Assembly (NCBI GenBank): GCA_964388845.1
Contig: CAYMCD010000004.1
Location: 452 to 64,451 of the forward strand
Length of the DNA stretch: 64,000 nt
Source: an uncultured Verrucomicrobiota bacterium
GTDB taxonomy: Bacteria > Verrucomicrobiota > Kiritimatiellia > CAIVKH01
Direction of reading: 5' to 3'
This document shows positions 1-62,495 of the stretch, in pieces; position 1 is the stretch's first letter, and every line of letters begins with the position of its first letter. The position numbers and the translations under genes are program-made. A model generated the notes under the pieces. It did not search any database and had not been told where the DNA came from. It saw only the letters and a list, made by a program, of their open reading frames with translations.

Positions 1-101
1 CCATTTTCTACAGTCGGGGTGAGTGGCAAGGTGCAATCGGTATCCGCGGGCGTGAGCTTGTCCGCGCGGAGGGGTGGGTGCGTCGTTGTGAGTGGGGGTT
101 T

Positions 102-150
102 TTACAGACGTTGGAACTCATGACGCGGTGTTATTACAGACGTTGGAAGT
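102..150 (+). repeat. Two direct copies of a conserved AT-rich ~20-bp element (core TTACAGACGTTGGAA at 102-116 and 135-149, 33-bp register) overlapping the 5' end of the giant gene
   Basis: Read directly: tttttACAGACGTTGGAAct (98-119) and atTACAGACGTTGGAAgttc (133-153). The same extended 18-20-mers recur three times at 24504-24566. The element is about 40% GC in a ~68% GC background. Copy 2 lies inside the predicted signal-peptide codons (YYRRWKF) if ATG-120 is the start. Confidence 0.75.
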
Positions 151-3100
151 TCTGCGCGGCGGCTGCCGCTCTCTGGTCGTACCTCTGGGTGACGGATGGG
201 CGAGCGGATGTCTACCTCGGGAAGGATGGCGGTCTCGAGGGCATCGCGACGGTGGACGACAGCACCACCTTCTCCACGGGCCAGTCGAACAAGTGGACCA
301 AGGACAACGCGACGATCACGATTTCGCAGGAAACCGTCAACATCCGGAGCGGCGCGAATGCGCTTCGTGTCCTCAATGCCAGCACGACGGGTCGCCGCAT
401 CCGTTCGCCCTTCAATTCGTTCGGATCCAAGACCACGGGGATCACGATCCAGTATTACCGGATGATCACCAACGTTTCGAATTCCGCCTCCAACCAGGAG
501 GGCGTCGTGCGGAGCTCCACGGAATCGCTCCAGGGCACCTACGACCGGCCTGCGAGCGCCAACAGTTGGGATAAGCAGACCTATTCCCCCGCGAGCGCCA
601 CGTTCACCAGTATCGTCGGAGTGATCCTGTCGCGCGGGCCCACGGCGTCGGGCGGGAACATCTACATTGACGACATGTGCATTTATGACGGTTCCGTTGA
701 CACGACGGCGCCGAACGCGCCGGGGTCCGTCGTGGTGGAGAACGCAACGACCACCTCGCTCGACATACGATGGGGCGCGGCCAGCGGAGGGGTGGACAGC
801 GGCGGTTACTTGGTCGTCCGATACACCGCGAGTCCCGCGGCCAGTGACGATCCGAACGCCAACGGCATTTATGCCAGCAACAACACGTTCACGGTGACGC
901 TGACCGGCACGGTCAGGTATCAGGGGACCGGCACCAACTTCACGGACACGGGTCTCGCGTCCAGCCAGGCCTACTATTACAAGGTCTACACCTACGACAA
1001 GGCCTACAACTATTCGTCCGAATCGTCGGGCAACGGCACGACCTTGTCGTCCTGCACCCCCGTCGGCGCGGTGACCTTTGTCCAGCAGACCAATTACTAC
1101 ACGAAGTACTCAAGCGGCGGCGATATTTTCAACGTGGATGCGGCTCGGATGGGCATGTGGGCCAATTCCGGGAGTGAGCAGGCGGTTGCGTGGCGCGCCT
1201 TCCGCACGGACGGCAGCGGGGGTGGAGAACTGCGCGAATTGCAGCCGGGCGACCGGTTCCGCGTAACGATCAACGGGCCCAACCCGAGCGGTCTGGTGGG
1301 CGTCTCCATCAACGACGGCGCGGCGACGGGATCCTGGGACAATCGAACCAACAATACGCGCGGGTTTATCCAGGTGCAGGGCGGCGGCGCGAACGATTAT
1401 TTCGTCACACACGGCGGCGGAACCCCGGCCTGGTCCGGGGTCAGGCCGAACAGCACGGATCAAACCCTGGTGTTCGACATCCTCTCCAGCGCCGAGTTCA
1501 CGGCGAATATCGAGGGCCAGACGGCCAAATATGACCTGTCCATGCTGAACGGTCCGGGCGACGGCGATCGAGTTGACGGTTTCTCGCTGTTCTTGAACAA
1601 CGACGCCGGGGATATCCACTGGAAGCAGACCACGATGGTCACCAACCTCGGCTACGTCGAGTTGGGCGCGGACAACGGCACGCGCAGCATCGCCGGCAAG
1701 ATCACCGACAGCACGGATCCGGCCTGCACGAACACGGCCGCGCCGAATCTGCTCCGGAAGACCGGAACCGGGACCGTCACCCTGCAGAATACGGCGAACA
1801 CCTACACGATGGGCACGCGGGTCGAGGCGGGCACGCTGGCCGTGTTCAACGACGGCAGCCTCGGCGCGGCGCCCGGCGGCGCGGTGGCGACGAACCTCAA
1901 TATCTGGAGCAGCGGGACCCTGCGGGCGACGAACAGTTTTACGATCAGCGCCAATCGCGGTATCGCCCTCGGCGACGTGAGCGGCCCGGGCATCGAGGTG
2001 GATTCCGGCAAGACGCTGACCTATGCCGGCGCGCTGGGCGGCAACGCGGAATGGAACAAGAAGGGCACGGGCACGCTGGCGCTGACCGGCACGTCGAGCA
2101 CCAACAACGGCAAGGTCGTCATCCAGGGCGGCACGTTGCAGCTCGCGGGCGACGGCAGCCTCGGCGCGGTCCCCGGCGCGGCGTCGGAGAAGATCAACAT
2201 CTGGAGTACGGGCACGCTGGAGGCCAACGCGACGTTCACGCTGAACGCGAACCGACGCATCGAACTCGGCGCCGTGGCCGGACCGAAGATCTCCGTGGCC
2301 GGCGGATATACGCTGACCTACGGCGGACAGATCAGCGGGTCGGCCAATTGGAGCAAGGAGAGCGCGGGCACGCTGGCGCTGACCGGGGCGGTCGGATCCG
2401 CCAGCGGCACGCTGGTGCTCAATGCCGGCACGGTGGCGTTCGACGGCACCAACACCTCGCAGGCCGTGGGCGTGACGGCGTCCGGTTTCCTCTACGGCAA
2501 CGGATCTATCGGCGCGCTGACGATCACCGGCCAGGTCAGCGCGGGCGGCGCGTCGAACACCGTGGGCAATCTCCGGACCACCAGTCTCAATCTCCAGGAC
2601 AACGGCCGGTTGCAGGTGAACTTTTCGGCGATGACCGGCACGGCGGGCACGGATTGGGATGTGATCACCGTCGGCGGCGGATCGGGCACCTACACGGTCA
2701 ACGCGGCTGACGGCTCGGACTTCGTCCTGGCGCTGAAAGGCAACCCGACGTTCAACAACGCGCTGGGCTACACCAACATCATCGCGGACGCCGGCACGGC
2801 GTCCGGCTTCGTCTCCAATAAATTCACCGTCAGCACCGACGAATTCACGCCCGGCCTCGGCGGCGGCGCCTTTGTCGTGGACGCGGCCGGCGGCGACCTG
2901 CGCTTGATCTTCATCCCGTCCGTGGTGGCCGAACCGGACATGGGCGTGCTGGGGACCAACGGCGCGGCCATTTCCAACGGCGATGTCGCGCCCTCGGCGG
3001 CGGACGGAACGGATTTCGGCCAGGTATATGTGTTGGGCGCACGGGCCGTCACAAACGTGTTTGCCATCACCAACGCCGGGACGGCGAATCTGACGCTGTC

Positions 3101-24503: not shown

Positions 24504-24566
24504 TTCCAACGTCTGTAAAAACAGTTCGCGCGCACTTCCAACGTCTGTAATTTACAGACGTTGGAA
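24504..24566. repeat. Three copies of the same AT-rich element as at 102-150: 24504-24518 and 24536-24550 (reverse orientation, 32-bp register) and 24552-24566 (forward); the last two form a 31-bp perfect palindrome TTCCAACGTCTGTAA-T-TTACAGACGTTGGAA
   Basis: Read directly. On the minus strand this locus reads ATTACAGACGTTGGAAGT..13 nt..TTTTTACAGACGTTGGAACT, the same two extended variants as at 98-153 but in swapped order. It sits between the convergent 3' ends of the aldehyde dehydrogenase gene (end 24449) and the minus-strand gene ending at 24585. Confidence 0.75.
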
Positions 24567-54056: not shown

Positions 54057-54185
54057 AGGGGGAGGGGAGTTGGGAGAAAGGAACTATACTACTGAGCAAT
54101 GATGAGTTGACCGATTCTCATGGCGGCTTGGTGTAAGGAATCGGGAAGGGGGAGCCGGTCCTCTATTCCAACTCCTGTCACCCCG

Positions 54186-56939: not shown

Positions 56940-59900
56940 GTGCCTGACTATGGGGAATTCAATCCATGTGGAGTTGTGAGCGTTAGGCGGCAGTTCCGCG
57001 TCCTGGGACGCGCCCTGCTGATAGCTGTTGCCGCGACGACGCTCGCCCGGGCGCAGGCCCTGAACCAGGATTTTTCCGCCACGAATTTCCCCCCCGCGGG
57101 TTGGACGGTGTCCGGTTCCGCGCCCGACCTGTGGCGGCGAAACGCGGCCTCCGGTTTCGGAATCGGGTCCGGCTCGGCCCAGGCCTATTTCTGGGGTATC
57201 AGCTCGGGAACGGGATTATTGGCGTCGCCCGTGTTCGATGCGACCACGCCGGGCGATGCGCTGTTGTTCGACTACGCCTACGCCGCGTACTACGACGTCG
57301 TGGACCGGTTGGAAATCCTGTACTCCACCAATGCGGGCGCTTCGTATGCGACGCTCCTGGTCATGCCGGGCGGTCCGACGGGGAGTCTCACCACGGTCGA
57401 ATCGCGCACCAGCGCATTCGTGCCGACGGCCGAGGAGTGGAACAGCATCGCCGTACCGCTTCCCGAGGGCGCAAACCGCGTGCAATTCGCCGCCGTCACG
57501 GCCTACGGAAACAACCTGTATGTGGACAACCTCCGCGTGCTGGATTATTCCGGGGCCGCCGATCTCGCGGTGTCGCTGTCCGATGCGCCGGATCCCGTGG
57601 CGGTGGGCAGCAACCTGACGTATTCCCTGACGGTTTCCAACGCGGGCCCGGCGGCGGCCGATGCGGTGGTGCTGACGAATCAATGGTCCGCCCCGGCCGC
57701 GCTGATTTCCGCGACGACCAGCCGCGGCGCGTGGTCCACCAACGCCAACGCCGTGATCGTTGACGTGGGCTCGCTCGCCTCCGGCGAATCCGCCGCAATC
57801 TCCATCGTGATCCAGCCGCAAACCACCGGCCTGTTGACGAATGTGGCCGAAGCGGCCACGACCACCCTCGAACTCGTCCCCGGAAACAACCGGCGAACGG
57901 TCAGCACTCGGGTGGATACCCACGGCGGCGATTTGTTTTTCAGCCCCGCATCGTATGCCGTGGATGAAGGCCGTGGATTCGTTGTCCTCACCGTCCGGCG
58001 GACGAACGGGAGCGCCGGCGCGGTCTCCTTTGATTGCGCGTTCGCCGACGGTTCGGCCCTGACGGGGAGCGACTACAGCGCACCGGGTGGAACGATGACC
58101 CTTGCCAACGGGCAGACTTCCGTCAGTTGGGCCGTGACCATTTTGAATGATGCGCTCCTGGAGGACATCGAGTCTTTTTCTGTCCGTTTGAGCAACCCGG
58201 CGGGCGGCGCGCGCCTGGTCGCGCCCAGCAACGCAACGGTGACGATCCGCGACGACGACGGCGTCGCGGCGATGCCCCTCGCGGACGATTTCGAATCCGG
58301 CGTATTCTCGAATTACTGGTCCACCTATTCGACGGCATCGCTCGGGCCGCTGATTACGGTCTCCGACGGACCGTACAGCGGGTCCCGGCATGTCAACCTG
58401 AACGGCGATTTCCTGGTCTCTTCCCTCAACGAGTTGATCTTGACCGCAAACCTGGCCGGGCAGGAGGGTGTGCGCCTGCGCTTCTGGCACAAGCGCTTCC
58501 GCTATGAGACCGACAACACCATGAGCGACTCGTTCGTCGGCCATGCCTACGCGGATGGCGTGGCAATCAGCGTGGATGGGACCACCTGGCACAAGGTCCA
58601 CGGCCTTACGGCGGCCGAAACAGGAACCAACGAATACCGCCAGTTCGACGTGGCTCTCGATCCCATCCTGGCCGCGCGTGGGCTGGCCTTCACCGACCGC
58701 GTTCGCATCAAGTTCCAGATGTATGGCTACTATTATCCGCCCTCTTACGGTCGGTTTATTGACGACATCGCCCTCTATACGCAGAGCGGCGACCTGCGTT
58801 TCCCCGGGCCGTCCATGGAGGTCGTGGAGGGGGCGGGCGCCCTCACGGTCACCGTCGAACGCGTGCAGGGCGATTCGGGCGAGGTGAGCGTGGCGTTCGC
58901 AACGAGCAACGAGACGGCGCTGGCGGAGAGCGATTATACATCCGCAACCGGCGTGCTGGTGTTCAGCAATGGGCAGCGCCGCGCGGACCTTGTTGTGCCG
59001 ATTCTTCAGGACAGCGCGGACGAGACGTCCGAAATCTTCAGCATCAACCTGTTCAATCCGCAGGGCGGGGCGGGTCTCGCGTCACCGTCCCGCATGGAGG
59101 TGACGATTGCCGACGACGACGGGCCGGGCGAGCTCGTTTTCAGCGCGGCAAATTATGTGCAGTTGGAGTCCGGTGGTCTGGCGAGCATCACCGTGATCCG
59201 GCGCTTCGGGACCAACGGCGCGGTGACCGTCAACTATCGGACCGCCGCAGGCACGGCGGCCAGCGGGGTTGATTACGAGGAAACCGCCGGCACGCTCGTA
59301 TTCCCGGATGGCGTCGCGCAGCGGATTATTGAAATCCCGTTGCTCGACGACAACCTCGTCGAGGGCGCGGAAACCGTTCTGCTGTTCCTCGAACAGCCGG
59401 CCGGCGGCGCGACCCTCGGGCCGCAAACCAACGCCACGCTGACGCTGCTCGACGACGAGGCGCCCCGCGCGCCGTTTCCATTTTATGAAGGGTTCGAAAG
59501 CGGGATCTTGTCCAACTACTGGTCCGTTCGCTCCACCGGCGCGGGCCGGGGCCAGATCGCCGGATCCAACGCCTACGAAGCCGCGCGGTGCCTTGCCCTG
59601 GATTCGACCTCCGGCTTCGCCCTCAACGAGGCCGTGCTCACGGTGGACCTCGCCGGCCAGACCAGCGTGATCCTGCGCTGCTGGGCGCGCGATTTTGGCG
59701 ACACGCCGGATCCCCTGCCGGACACGTTCCCCGGCTCGACCAATGCCGACGGCATCGCCGTGAGCGCCGACGGCCTGACCTGGCATCGCCTCCTCGACTG
59801 GGGCGGGACCGGTGCTGCGGCGTCCTATACGGGCCGGGTCGTAGATCTGGCCGGCGAGGCGGCCGCCCGGGGGATCCCGTTGACTCCGACCTTCCAGATC

Positions 59901-62495
59901 AAATTCCAGCACTATGGTGATGCCGCGCTGACATCGGGCGGCAGGGCGTTCGATCACATCAGTCTTACCCCTGCGCCGCCCGCCACTTCCACGGTCATCC
60001 GCTTCCAGGGGTTCGAGGGGCATCCCGACGATACGTGGGATTATAGCATCGTGCCGAAATCCGGCGCACTGGCGCTCGCGACGGCCCGACGAAACAGCGG
60101 TACACGTTCCGCGCGACTGACCGGCTCATTCCAGTTGAACGCGGATCCGTATCTGGAATTCAACAACGTGTCCATCGGCGCTTACAACAATGTACAGCTT
60201 TCCGTCGCGTTCAGCGCGTCCGGGCCGGATACGGACGACGACCTGTACCTCGATATTTCCTACGACAACGGCGCCACGTGGAACGGCGCCGGGTCGGCCA
60301 AGCTGGTGGACGGCTACAGCAATGCCGAGGTGCCCTTTGGAGGCACGAATCCGGCCAATCCCGCCACGGTGACGAACAATCCCTGGCTCGTGAACATTCC
60401 CGCGGGCCGCTCGCAGGTCAAGGCACGGCTGCGTTTTGACGAGCGCTCCGGGAGCTACAACAATTCGATAGACCACTACTTCGTGGACGACATCCGGTTG
60501 AGCTACCAGCCGTTCGGCCAGCCGCCCCGCCTTGTTCCGATCGGCGACCGGACAGCGCTGGTGAGCAACACGCTGGAGTTCATCGTCTCCGCCGACGATA
60601 TTGACCATGAGGTCATCACCCTCGCCGCCGACGACCTGCCGCCCGGCGCGGTATTTGAACCGCTGGCCGGCGCAGGTCCCGTGAGCAATGTCTTCCGATT
60701 CACGCCGGACGAGAGCCAGGCCGATGCCGTCTATCCGGTTGTTTTCCACGCCACGGATGGCGACGGCCGCCATTCGGAAACGGTGGCAATCCGTGTGCTC
60801 GACAAGGTCGTCACATTTTCCACAAACCATATGTTCATCGAAGAGGCATCCGGTGGCGTTGTTGTCGGGATCCGCCTGTCGCGCTCCGCCGATGTCACCG
60901 TGCCGCTTGCAATCACCGGCCTGGCGACGCTCGGCGCCGACTATGCCCTGTCGGCCACCGCGTTGACCTTCACGGTGGACGGACCCAATGAGCAGAACAT
61001 CATGCTGACACCCGTGGACGACGGTTTGCCTGAAGGCCCTGAAAACCTGCGGATGGCCGTGGCCGAAACCCCCGATGCGCGGGCCGGTGACGACGGCTGC
61101 GAGGTGATTCTCCGCGACGACGACAGCGTCACGATTGCCGACGCGAACCTGACGAGCGGCGGCGGGGGCTACTATCGGGGCCCCGGCGAACGCATCCTGC
61201 AAGCCCTGCGGGCGGACATCGTGGCCATCCAGGAGTTCCGGGTCACCAACGCCGCCGGCCCCCGCGCGTTCGTGGATCAGCATTTCGGCACGAATTTCCA
61301 TTACTATGTCGAACCCGCCACGCTGCCGAACGGGGTCATCAGCCGCTGGCCGATCCTGGCCGCCGGCCAGTGGGACGACCCGCTGCTCTCCGACCGCGAA
61401 TTCGTCTGGGCCACCATAGATGTGCCCGGCGGCCGCCCGCTCCACGTCGTCAGTGTGCACTTCTACTATTCCGGCGGCGCCTCCGCGCGCGAGTCCGAGG
61501 CGCGCTTGCTGACCAACTACCTCGCGAACGCGGGCTTCCACCCCTCGGACCTCGTGGTCGTCTGCGGCGACTTGAACACCCAGCATCGGGAAGAGGCTGC
61601 GTTGAACGTGTTGACGGGCGTCCTGCGGGACGACCGGCGGCCCGCCGATCTGTTCGGCGATACCGATACCAACCAGAACCGCGACAAGCCGTATGACTTC
61701 GTGCTGCCGTTGCCCTATTTGAATGCGCGCCACCAGCCCGTGCATCTCGGCGGCCTGGTGTTTCCGGAGGGGCTGGTGTTCGACACCCGGCATTGGAACC
61801 CGCCGCCCGCGCCCGCCCTTTGGAATGACTCCGGCGAACAGATGATGCAACACATGGCGGTGATGAAACGCTTCGAATTGGACCGGTTTGTGACGCTCCT
61901 GGCGCGGACCAATGGCCCCGGGACCATAGCCCCGGCCCACGCCGAGGTCGGCCTCGGTTCCAACCAGGCCTTCACGCTGACCGCCGCGCCGTATCACCAC
62001 ATCCGCCGCATCCGCGCGAATGAGGAAAGTTGGGAGCCGCCCGGGACGGCTTCTGAAATCGTGTGGGTCTGGACCAACACACAAGCCAACGGTTGGCTTG
62101 AGGTGACGTTCGACGAGACGCTCGCCACCAATCGCGTGCCGCATTTCTGGCTGGCCGCTTACGGATTAACCAACGAGACCTGGGACGCCGAGGCCCTGAA
62201 GGACGCCGACGAAGACGGCATGGCGGCGTGGGAGGAATATCTGGCCGATACCAATCCGACCAATTCCCAGTCGGTCTTTGAGGTGCTGGCCCTCCAGGGC
62301 GGTGCGGGCCGCGCCATCACCTTTTTCTCCTCCACCGCGCGCGTCTACACCGTGGACTTCACGACGAACGCACAACCCGGCGGCGCGTGGCAGCCGCTCG
62401 CCGCCGAGCAACCCGGCGGGTATGGGCAGACGACGCTCGTCGATACGAACCCCGCGCCGATCCGCATCTACCGGGTCCGGGTGCGTGCCCCGTAG
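56940..62495 (+). CDS. Giant secreted multidomain protein 2 (about 1840-1850 aa): MAM-like, DUF11/CARDB-like and Calx-beta modules plus an EEP domain, paralogous to parts of giant protein 1
   Basis: ORF opens with GTG 56940. A more likely start is GTG 56976 (RBS GGAG 56969-72), giving a signal peptide VSVRRQFRVLGRALLIAVAATTLARAQA. Domains by eye: CARDB/DUF11-like (..AADLAVSLSDAPDPVAVGSNLTYSLTVSNAGPAAADAVVLTNQW..); MAM-like modules (FESGVFSNYWS...W...FIDDIALY; FQGFEGHPDDTWDY...YFVDDIRLSY); Calx-beta-like ends (..ATVTIRDDDG, ..MEVTIADDDG, ..ATLTLLDDE, ..CEVILRDDDSVTI); EEP domain (~61128-61875; DIVAIQEF, SRWPI, HVVSVHF, VVCGDLN, YDFVLPL). C-terminal ~80 aa are homologous to the C-terminus of the 16907-17776 protein. 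Confidence 0.9.
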   Translation: MPDYGEFNPCGVVSVRRQFRVLGRALLIAVAATTLARAQALNQDFSATNFPPAGWTVSGSAPDLWRRNAASGFGIGSGSAQAYFWGISSGTGLLASPVFDATTPGDALLFDYAYAAYYDVVDRLEILYSTNAGASYATLLVMPGGPTGSLTTVESRTSAFVPTAEEWNSIAVPLPEGANRVQFAAVTAYGNNLYVDNLRVLDYSGAADLAVSLSDAPDPVAVGSNLTYSLTVSNAGPAAADAVVLTNQWSAPAALISATTSRGAWSTNANAVIVDVGSLASGESAAISIVIQPQTTGLLTNVAEAATTTLELVPGNNRRTVSTRVDTHGGDLFFSPASYAVDEGRGFVVLTVRRTNGSAGAVSFDCAFADGSALTGSDYSAPGGTMTLANGQTSVSWAVTILNDALLEDIESFSVRLSNPAGGARLVAPSNATVTIRDDDGVAAMPLADDFESGVFSNYWSTYSTASLGPLITVSDGPYSGSRHVNLNGDFLVSSLNELILTANLAGQEGVRLRFWHKRFRYETDNTMSDSFVGHAYADGVAISVDGTTWHKVHGLTAAETGTNEYRQFDVALDPILAARGLAFTDRVRIKFQMYGYYYPPSYGRFIDDIALYTQSGDLRFPGPSMEVVEGAGALTVTVERVQGDSGEVSVAFATSNETALAESDYTSATGVLVFSNGQRRADLVVPILQDSADETSEIFSINLFNPQGGAGLASPSRMEVTIADDDGPGELVFSAANYVQLESGGLASITVIRRFGTNGAVTVNYRTAAGTAASGVDYEETAGTLVFPDGVAQRIIEIPLLDDNLVEGAETVLLFLEQPAGGATLGPQTNATLTLLDDEAPRAPFPFYEGFESGILSNYWSVRSTGAGRGQIAGSNAYEAARCLALDSTSGFALNEAVLTVDLAGQTSVILRCWARDFGDTPDPLPDTFPGSTNADGIAVSADGLTWHRLLDWGGTGAAASYTGRVVDLAGEAAARGIPLTPTFQIKFQHYGDAALTSGGRAFDHISLTPAPPATSTVIRFQGFEGHPDDTWDYSIVPKSGALALATARRNSGTRSARLTGSFQLNADPYLEFNNVSIGAYNNVQLSVAFSASGPDTDDDLYLDISYDNGATWNGAGSAKLVDGYSNAEVPFGGTNPANPATVTNNPWLVNIPAGRSQVKARLRFDERSGSYNNSIDHYFVDDIRLSYQPFGQPPRLVPIGDRTALVSNTLEFIVSADDIDHEVITLAADDLPPGAVFEPLAGAGPVSNVFRFTPDESQADAVYPVVFHATDGDGRHSETVAIRVLDKVVTFSTNHMFIEEASGGVVVGIRLSRSADVTVPLAITGLATLGADYALSATALTFTVDGPNEQNIMLTPVDDGLPEGPENLRMAVAETPDARAGDDGCEVILRDDDSVTIADANLTSGGGGYYRGPGERILQALRADIVAIQEFRVTNAAGPRAFVDQHFGTNFHYYVEPATLPNGVISRWPILAAGQWDDPLLSDREFVWATIDVPGGRPLHVVSVHFYYSGGASARESEARLLTNYLANAGFHPSDLVVVCGDLNTQHREEAALNVLTGVLRDDRRPADLFGDTDTNQNRDKPYDFVLPLPYLNARHQPVHLGGLVFPEGLVFDTRHWNPPPAPALWNDSGEQMMQHMAVMKRFELDRFVTLLARTNGPGTIAPAHAEVGLGSNQAFTLTAAPYHHIRRIRANEESWEPPGTASEIVWVWTNTQANGWLEVTFDETLATNRVPHFWLAAYGLTNETWDAEALKDADEDGMAAWEEYLADTNPTNSQSVFEVLALQGGAGRAITFFSSTARVYTVDFTTNAQPGGAWQPLAAEQPGGYGQTTLVDTNPAPIRIYRVRVRAP

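Follow-up and report, generated by a model that had tools for sequence, protein, structure and literature searches.

A phased pair of elements on the start of a giant gene

Two near-identical AT-rich elements flank the start codon of a giant gene in a 64,000-nucleotide stretch of DNA from an uncultured Verrucomicrobiota bacterium of the class Kiritimatiellia (GenBank assembly GCA_964388845.1, contig CAYMCD010000004.1, positions 452 to 64,451 of the forward strand; hereafter, the window), and the question that this locus raises is whether they form a switch dedicated to that gene or belong to something more general. We give a probability of roughly one half to the reading that the elements are one copy of a genome-wide and Kiritimatiellia-wide family of phased sites for a single putative DNA-binding protein. 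Judged from its sequence, the pair on the giant-gene start would then probably represent docking sites for this protein, and not a switch for the giant gene.

The element proper is a 15-mer, TTACAGACGTTGGAA, with a GC content of 40%, compared with 66% for the window. The window contains five exact copies, whereas 0.04 would be expected at random, none of 100 shuffled sequences reached five, and a search with an 11-nt core returned the same five positions and none besides. The AT-rich pair described in the initial annotation of this stretch is thus real. At the giant gene (locus 1), the first site (102–116, plus strand) spans positions −18 to −4 relative to the A of ATG-120 and includes GGAA, a possible Shine-Dalgarno (SD) sequence. 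It is followed by a 17-nt spacer, CTCATGACGCGGTGTTA (117–133, plus strand), which holds the start codon (120–122), so that ATG-120 does lie between the two copies, as first described. The second site (134–148, plus strand) covers codons 5–10 and thereby the residues YYRRWK in the n-region of the signal peptide. An nhmmer model of the whole unit matched locus 1 over its full 47 bp at 99–151 (46.4 bits), and the spacer fits the family spacer consensus G..CG...GAAC..TTT poorly.

The recurrence noted around 24,504–24,566 (locus 2) is also present, with three copies and not two. The distal site (24,504–24,518, minus strand), a family-type 17-nt spacer (GTGCGCGCGAACTGTTT on the minus strand, 24,519–24,535) and the middle site (24,536–24,550, minus strand) are followed by an inverted site (24,552–24,566, plus strand), which abuts the middle one; together, these last two form a perfect 31-bp palindrome. 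The register of the direct pair is 32 bp at both loci, in place of the 33 bp given initially. The abutting inverted sites of locus 2 yield a 14-bp hairpin with fold z-scores of −4.0 and −5.5 on the two strands, while the RNA fold at locus 1 is not unusual (z = 0.09).

Anatomy of the unit

Alignment of 20 units, those from other genomes being designated here by L numbers, gave the layout t-TTACAGACGTTGGAA-[spacer]-TTACAGACGTTGGAA-nTT, in which the 15-mer is an imperfect dyad, TTMCAR-N3-YTGKAA, i.e., TT[A/C]CA[G/A]-N3-[C/T]TG[G/T]AA. Positions 1, 2, 4 and 5 of the dyad and their mirror positions are invariant. Because the variation, both within and between orthologous sites, sits mainly at the mirror positions 3/13 and 6/10, and because every combination of half-sites is found (TTACAG..TTGGAA, TTCCAA..TTGGAA and TTACAG..CTGTAA), we read the element as a dyad. 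Its information content is, by a rough estimate, about 24 bits per site.

The two sites lie 31 or 32 bp apart, centre to centre, in the 20 units (16–17 nt of spacer), a distance of three helical turns that places both on the same face of the DNA. A third site abuts at 16 bp in window locus 2 and its ortholog L156, and in L154, L019 and L109 (four independent loci), and L034 consists of the abutting pair alone, without a distal site. T-rich flanks lie on both sides, on the same strand. The arms of a single 15-mer can pair at just 4–5 positions, and neither a target-site duplication nor defined termini were visible in the 20 aligned units.

Two spacer classes occur side by side in the same genomes, a 17-nt class with the pattern G(T/C)CG..(C/G)GAAC..TTT and a 16-nt class with an A-tract. 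Inside one genome the spacers vary widely while the 15-mers are near-exact, which argues against recent copying of the whole element. Spacers of unrelated loci in different genomes have up to 12 of 17 bases in common (hand count on the alignment). The centre of the 15-mer is uniform per genome, being ACG in the window genome and AGC, AGT or AGG in L154 and L155.

Distribution among Kiritimatiellia genomes

A scan for the 15-mer covered one genome per species, the window's source genome not being among them, and listed 108 stretches; the counts drawn from it are lower bounds. Among the matches listed, the majority stood alone in genes of unrelated taxa and can be put down to chance. Kiritimatiellia metagenome-assembled genomes (MAGs) contributed at least six stretches in CALKUH01, at least five in DAOLDD01 and at least two in JAMLJG01, and nearly all Kiritimatiellia stretches carry a second, slightly degenerate copy 31–32 bp away. 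Among 150 fetched loci, additional matches to the dyad pattern were confined to those from Kiritimatiellota. Similarly, the unit model gave full-length matches (27–56 bits) in Kiritimatiellia alone, each control locus yielding a half match of at most 21 bits. Some apparent extra sites in Pontiellaceae were coding coincidences, such as the PanB motif IPTIGIG, which encodes TTCCAACCATTGGAA, and were not counted.

A motif-blind set was obtained by fetching the syntenic regions of six relatives (L151, L152, L154, L155, L156 and L160; 120 kb) via homologues of an aldehyde dehydrogenase (ALDH), without use of the motif. These regions hold five units and one single site, i.e., around one per 24 kb; the window holds two loci in 64 kb. 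The motif-blind density corresponds to a copy number in the order of 10^2 per genome, a rough figure from loci that share one syntenic neighbourhood. Three of the six occurrences lie between convergent genes (L156, the second unit of L155 and the single site of L151), two between divergent genes (the first unit of L155 and L160) and one between tandem genes (L154). With regard to start codons, several units end 2–70 nt ahead of one, the first unit of L155 lies approximately 300 nt upstream of one, and other units reach mid-gene. The orientation of the units relative to transcription is mixed, about 12 being co-directional and 8 antisense by a hand tally.

The initial annotation had asked whether copies associate with surface-protein or exopolysaccharide (EPS) genes. 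Such an association was not borne out, since the neighbours are unrelated housekeeping genes in both orientations, and several units are placed between convergent 3′ ends, with no promoter at hand to act on. They include acs, arsR/arsC, metX, kpsF, hom, nadE, sucC, tsaE and MauE, together with genes for a low-molecular-weight protein tyrosine phosphatase (LMW-PTP), an aldo-keto reductase, a GT4 glycosyltransferase, a ketosynthase and a secreted protein encoded divergently from acs. The kpsF unit lies directly past an intrinsic terminator, 15 nt ahead of the start codon, and the unit upstream of hom adjoins a Thr/Ile-rich leader peptide with a terminator. At this last locus (L097, 60–190), the unit stands just upstream of a short open reading frame, MKRVVAIITITTTGGS, which is followed by the intrinsic terminator and by the homoserine dehydrogenase gene; the arrangement resembles that of a classical attenuator with a Thr/Ile leader peptide, here in a bacterium of the Planctomycetes–Verrucomicrobia–Chlamydiae (PVC) group.

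In a metagenome scan for pairs, one Kiritimatiellia-like locus (L109) was found among 42. Among the other metagenome matches (L110–L150, GC content 0.32–0.53) are at least ten different tandem or hairpin repeat families of low-GC organisms with the core (T)ACAGACGTTGCA, often as 15–16-bp tandem arrays closed by an inverted copy, TGCAACGTCTCT. This core is nearly identical to the Kiritimatiellia variant TTACAGACGTTGCAA, either by coincidence or through a common recognition motif. A viral scan returned phage 11-bp iterons only, namely the tandem repeats GAACAGACGTT/GAACGGACGCT on the viral contigs L157–L159, which are unrelated to the 15-mer unit. BLAST searches gave no match to the unit in plasmids, and in phages a 23-nt match at chance level only (E = 0.7).

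Conservation, turnover and lineage variants

At three loci, the unit has been retained in the orthologous place in different genera, while the sequence around it has diverged. In the first, the three-site cluster of window locus 2, including its distal site, is kept at the orthologous convergent spacer in L156 (79% ALDH identity): 42 of 45 site positions are identical, compared with 9 of 17 in the spacer, and the flanks cannot be aligned. In the second, inside a GT4 gene, L054 and L071 are identical at 44 of 47 positions of the unit, spacer included, and at 82–85% in the flanks. The L071 contig (JBDHVC010000048.1, labelled Sandaracinaceae), which carries the GT4 unit of the Kiritimatiellia contig L054 and shows this 82–85% DNA identity to it across the GT4 gene, is probably mis-binned. 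In the third, an FGE-sulfatase lipoprotein gene with orthologs in L093 and L054b has the pair at identical codons in both, in different variants, one being TT(G/A)CAGACGTTGGAA and the other TTCCAACC(C/G)TTGGAA.

Next to this third locus, a conserved leader (...GATGCGAGTG...; L093 6540–6620 and L054 3070–3150) lies in both genera between a TTGACA-N17-TACTAc promoter and a gene for a small membrane protein. The FGE-sulfatase gene is divergent, and its GTG start codon overlaps, on the opposite strand, the TTGACA of this promoter.

Lineage-specific variants, or dialects, were also found elsewhere: TTACAGAG(C/G/T)ATGGAA in L154 and L155, TTCCAAGGATTGGAA in L160, and, over the family, ACAGACGTTGG, ACAGAGCATGG and CCAANNNTTGG. 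The locus 2 cluster is missing in two closer relatives, L151 (89% ALDH identity, 25-nt spacer) and L152 (83%, 213-nt spacer). Taken together, the sequences indicate that the sites are maintained, that their consensus is lineage-specific, and that units are gained and lost.

Units inside coding sequence

Four units lie in frame inside genes. In the giant gene, the unit occupies signal-peptide codons; in the FGE-sulfatase lipoprotein of two genera (L093 and L054b), it encodes residues 21–36, between the signal peptide and the domain; in nadE, it falls in an inter-domain linker (residues ~284–299); and in the GT4 glycosyltransferase, it encodes residues ~217–233. One DNA element encodes FPTSV...DFQxLx in two unrelated proteins. 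Since the same DNA pair as in the giant gene encodes unrelated peptides in three other proteins, the DNA element dictates the peptide and not the reverse. The initial suggestion that the element constrains the n-region of the giant protein (YRRWK) is thereby supported, and the short peptides YRRWK, FPTSV and DFQxLE in unrelated proteins can be regarded as imposed by the DNA.

A putative dimeric DNA-binding protein

These observations are consistent with a model in which each 15-mer dyad would bind one dimer of a putative protein, which fits the invariance of dyad positions 1, 2, 4 and 5 and of their mirrors. Two dimers on the same helix face, three turns apart, could bind cooperatively, and the units would act at the level of DNA, irrespective of the local transcription unit. 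That one dimeric protein would bind the DNA itself is suggested by the dyad logic, by the three-turn phasing and by sites that are conserved far above their spacers. Units that point either way, lie in convergent regions or in coding sequence and have unrelated neighbours argue against an operator for one gene, and also against a core promoter or a target in RNA. On the giant-gene start, such a complex would cover −18 to +29, downstream of the promoter, and could be a roadblock. The giant gene would then exemplify a feature of the genome at large, be it architectural, insulating or global-regulatory, rather than possess a dedicated switch.

Cooperative pairs three helical turns apart are known from the NtrC sites at glnAp2, the tandem NrdR boxes and the Lrp sites in pap. 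Like them, the units consist of dyads of 15–17 bp with a 6-3-6 layout, 31–32 bp apart, implying dimers on one helix face. Unlike those sites, which are linked to promoters and belong to defined regulons, the units come with neither a sigma-54 promoter nor a coherent regulon, their position relative to promoters varies, and they are far less degenerate.

Several observations weigh against this model. The binder itself is putative, and its binding is what the site architecture suggests. Regulons of transcription factors seldom have a 15-mer preserved almost exactly, centre included, at so many sites, and the uniform centre within each genome has the look of concerted evolution or of copying, such as occurs in families of repetitive extragenic palindromes (REPs). 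The same-strand T-rich flanks make the element not fully symmetric. Half of the motif-blind loci (three of six) lie between convergent genes, a poor fit to a promoter-proximal regulator. Lastly, turnover is fast, as the locus 2 cluster is absent at 89% and 83% ALDH identity and present at 79%.

We know of no cis-element or global DNA-binding protein described for Kiritimatiellota, a group that is molecularly little studied. The searchable literature gave no description of this element under its sequence, its dyad notations, or Kiritimatiell- terms combined with palindrome or intergenic.

A more far-reaching version, which we put forward tentatively, is a genome 'punctuation' system of Kiritimatiellia, in which one dedicated DNA-binding protein would recognize about 100 high-affinity phased dyad arrays per genome. 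These arrays would co-evolve with the protein, be kept at orthologous sites across genera, be tolerated in frame, and serve as marks of gene boundaries, convergent 3′ ends among them. Co-evolution of the arrays with their putative binder would explain the lineage dialects.

Genomic surroundings of the window loci

The giant gene encodes a secreted PATR/fn3 protein. Its frame is open from window base 3, and the GC content at third codon positions (GC3) is approximately 0.6 upstream of position 120 against 0.88 within the gene; this, together with the plausible Sec signal peptide MTRCYYRRWKFCAAAAALWSYLWVTDGRA at the beginning of the ATG-120 product, makes ATG-120 the likely true start. Searches with the N-terminal 700 and the C-terminal 800 residues of the protein gave domain matches or fragments only, and not syntenic orthologs of 4142–4947 residues; such syntenic orthologs exceed the 10-kb flank that was fetched.

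Locus 2 occupies a 135-nt spacer between two convergent operon 3′ ends, according to Pfam and GC3 evidence. The plus-strand operon ending there comprises sucC, sucD and the aldehyde dehydrogenase gene, and the minus-strand operon encodes an exosortase (EpsH), a sugar transferase and a 791-aa protein. With a 3′ end on either side, there is no promoter at locus 2 to regulate. Neither a sigma-70-like promoter nor an intrinsic terminator was predicted at locus 1 or locus 2, and no Rfam family matched the window elements.

The remaining window genes encode glycosyltransferases, an epimerase and gyrB-gyrA, with no transposase among the window genes. A possible degenerate single site, TGACAGGAGTTGGAA (54,166–54,180, minus strand), lies in the gyrB-gyrA spacer, 5 nt past the gyrB stop codon. 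It has one mismatch to the dyad pattern, with 0.41 such matches expected by chance, and may be a weak third member of the family or a chance match. Between the giant gene and sucC (window ~17.8–20.9 kb), a pair of genes for a TPR protein and a 264-aa protein is on the plus strand in the window and on the minus strand in the six relatives (L151–L160), which suggests a local inversion.

Alternative explanations

The alternative that survives best, although we consider it rather unlikely, is a mobile repeat resembling REPs or bacterial interspersed mosaic elements (BIMEs), in which the 46–47-bp unit or the 15-mer would be copied and homogenized by a transposase-like enzyme, any host function being secondary. 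The family appears to be dispersed and mainly extragenic, with copies estimated at ~10^2, it is frequent at convergent 3′ ends, and it is gained and lost among close relatives. The two spacer subfamilies per genome recall BIME classes, and spacers of unrelated loci in different genomes share the bases mentioned above (12 of 17 at most). In-frame copies sit in permissive linkers of the nadE, FGE-sulfatase and GT4 genes. Moreover, the palindromic units of enterobacteria also show a lineage-specific consensus at conserved loci, as seen here for L093 compared with L054b and for window locus 2 compared with L156.

The structure of the unit tells against this origin. Its paired sites are direct and not inverted repeats, a single site has no stable hairpin (see locus 1), and it takes two abutting sites in inverted orientation to form one. 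Within a genome, spacers have diverged far more than sites, and the units bear no visible duplication or termini. Copies are in frame although 47 bp is not a multiple of 3, position is kept across genera, and the plasmid and phage searches returned nothing above chance level. The sole Y1 (RAYT-like) transposase gene met, in what was not a genome-wide search, is flanked by another repeat (L154, 15,410–16,426). That repeat, TATAGGGGTCAGTCCGCACATAGTTGCA, stands in inverted orientation on both sides of the 338-aa Y1_Tnp (IS200/RAYT-like) gene at the contig end (15,100–16,436) and is unrelated to the 15-mer; the arrangement suggests that this Kiritimatiellia relative has a genuine REP/RAYT system.

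With the REPs and BIMEs of enterobacteria and pseudomonads, the units appear to share a short, dispersed, mainly extragenic nature, locations between operon genes and at convergent 3′ ends, a composite build with spacer subclasses, and a consensus that depends on lineage where loci are partly conserved; REPs and BIMEs are also regarded as docking places of host proteins. They differ in being AT-rich 15-bp dyads in direct phased pairs, and not GC-rich hairpin palindromes of 20–40 bp in inverted pairs, in that no association with RAYTs was seen, and in lying partly in frame inside genes. Miniature inverted-repeat transposable elements (MITEs) were rejected on the 20 aligned units, which are direct repeats with a variable spacer and show no target-site duplication, whereas a MITE has terminal inverted repeats, such a duplication and a conserved interior. 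A binding-site family and a mobile REP-like origin are not mutually exclusive.

A high-copy dispersed repeat at unrelated sites was what the initial annotation had named as speaking against a specific link to the giant gene, and this is largely what was found (at least six and at least five loci in two MAGs and about one unit per 24 kb, at unrelated loci). Since the structure of the family does not resemble that of REPs or MITEs, the pair may still have a weak or indirect regulatory effect on the giant gene. The evidence does not support regulation that would be particular to this gene or to EPS genes.

Accordingly improbable is a dedicated repressor or activator operator pair controlling the giant surface protein and EPS genes, a reading that extends the repressor/operator pair first suggested. 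The part of this suggestion that stands is the non-random pair of dyads at three-turn spacing, which fits protein sites at the DNA level. Locus 1 does lie on the start of the giant gene and locus 2 at the end of the exosortase/EpsH and sugar-transferase operon, and there are further units near kpsF, near GT4 and GT9 genes, and near genes for an LMW-PTP and for several secreted proteins. These genomes, however, are rich in genes for envelope and secreted proteins, and the apparent enrichment may be no more than background; many units adjoin acs, metX, nadE, arsC, hom, aldo-keto reductase, sucC or tsaE; and both locus 2 and its L156 ortholog lie between two 3′ ends. The second large window gene (56,940–62,495) and the other EPS genes have no site by the 15-mer, the dyad pattern or the unit model. 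Thus, of the features of an operator family, dyad symmetry and helical phasing (31–32 bp and 16 bp) are present, while a constant position relative to promoters or starts and functionally coherent targets are missing.

The published idea nearest to this proposal is the PEP-CTERM cis-regulatory site, or PrsR enhancer (Haft et al. 2006, PMC1569441), a 17-nt motif that ends in TTTACA, is followed 32–92 nt on by a sigma-54 promoter (−24/−12 element), and occurs in Proteobacteria only, never in coding sequence, in association with exosortase/EPS systems. The units resemble it as a repeated motif with TTTACA and in the kind of exosortase/EPS link first proposed. Its defining features are absent from the units, which lack a downstream sigma-54 promoter (18 scanned) and are present in coding sequence.

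Very improbable, in turn, is an element acting at the RNA level, either as the target of a small RNA or a CsrA-like protein at the ribosome-binding site, as had also been suggested initially, or as a stabilizing or terminating hairpin at 3′ ends. At locus 1, copy 1 covers the likely SD sequence and copy 2 the early codons, both with GGA, and the locus 2 hairpin lies at the ends of two convergent operons. This hairpin is the automatic outcome of two adjacent near-dyads, it is not followed by a U-tract, and the terminator scan was negative. The mixed orientation, the unremarkable fold of locus 1 and the absence of Rfam matches speak against a CsrA-type or other RNA-binding target.

The least probable explanation, a core promoter or enhancer served by an alternative sigma factor, either of ECF type (GGAAC/CGT) or sigma-54 (as an upstream activator sequence), draws on the −35-like TTTACA and TTGGAA and the GGAAC of the unit, on its 32-bp dyad spacing, which is that of NtrC enhancer sites, and on the units close to start codons, and is dismissed because internal distances misfit sigma-70 (17 bp) and ECF (16–17 bp) spacing, a −24/−12 element was found only once among 18 units scanned (isolated, near L059, on the strand opposite to the unit), separate canonical TTGACA-N17-TACTAt promoters lie downstream of the units in L093 and L054b (L097 has just a weaker TTGTGC-N16-TACTAT candidate), and units occur in both orientations, in convergent regions and in coding sequence. 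Sigma-70, ECF, sigma-54 and Bacteroidetes-type promoters were all ruled out by spacing and scans.

DNA uptake sequences (DUS) and uptake signal sequences (USS) of Neisseria and Pasteurellaceae also form lineage dialects, are tolerated in permissive coding positions and can stand as inverted pairs at gene ends. The units share these traits, sometimes including the inverted pairs; they differ in a density about 20-fold lower than the ~1 copy per kb of DUS and USS, which lie on both strands throughout the genome, and in having no evident competence context. We know of no direct 32-bp pairing of DUS or USS, and the density (two loci in 64 kb of window; five units plus a lone site over 120 kb of relatives) does not fit an uptake sequence. 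Half-site order or spacing ruled out the known forms of parS, LexA, IHF, Fis, IclR/AllR, LacI-family, BlaI/CopY and MetJ sites, iterons, attI, res and mini-CRISPR.

Implications

For annotation, the phased sites of a putative DNA-binding protein call for caution: the pair on the giant-gene start should not be read as a gene-specific switch. The unit is a sharply defined, high-information array with fixed phasing, conserved loci and lineage variants, and thus a ready bait for finding the putative binder. If the tentative punctuation system holds true, its arrays could be roadblocks, insulators or anchors of supercoil domains. The unit could also be a handle on how Kiritimatiellia genomes organize or insulate their transcription units.

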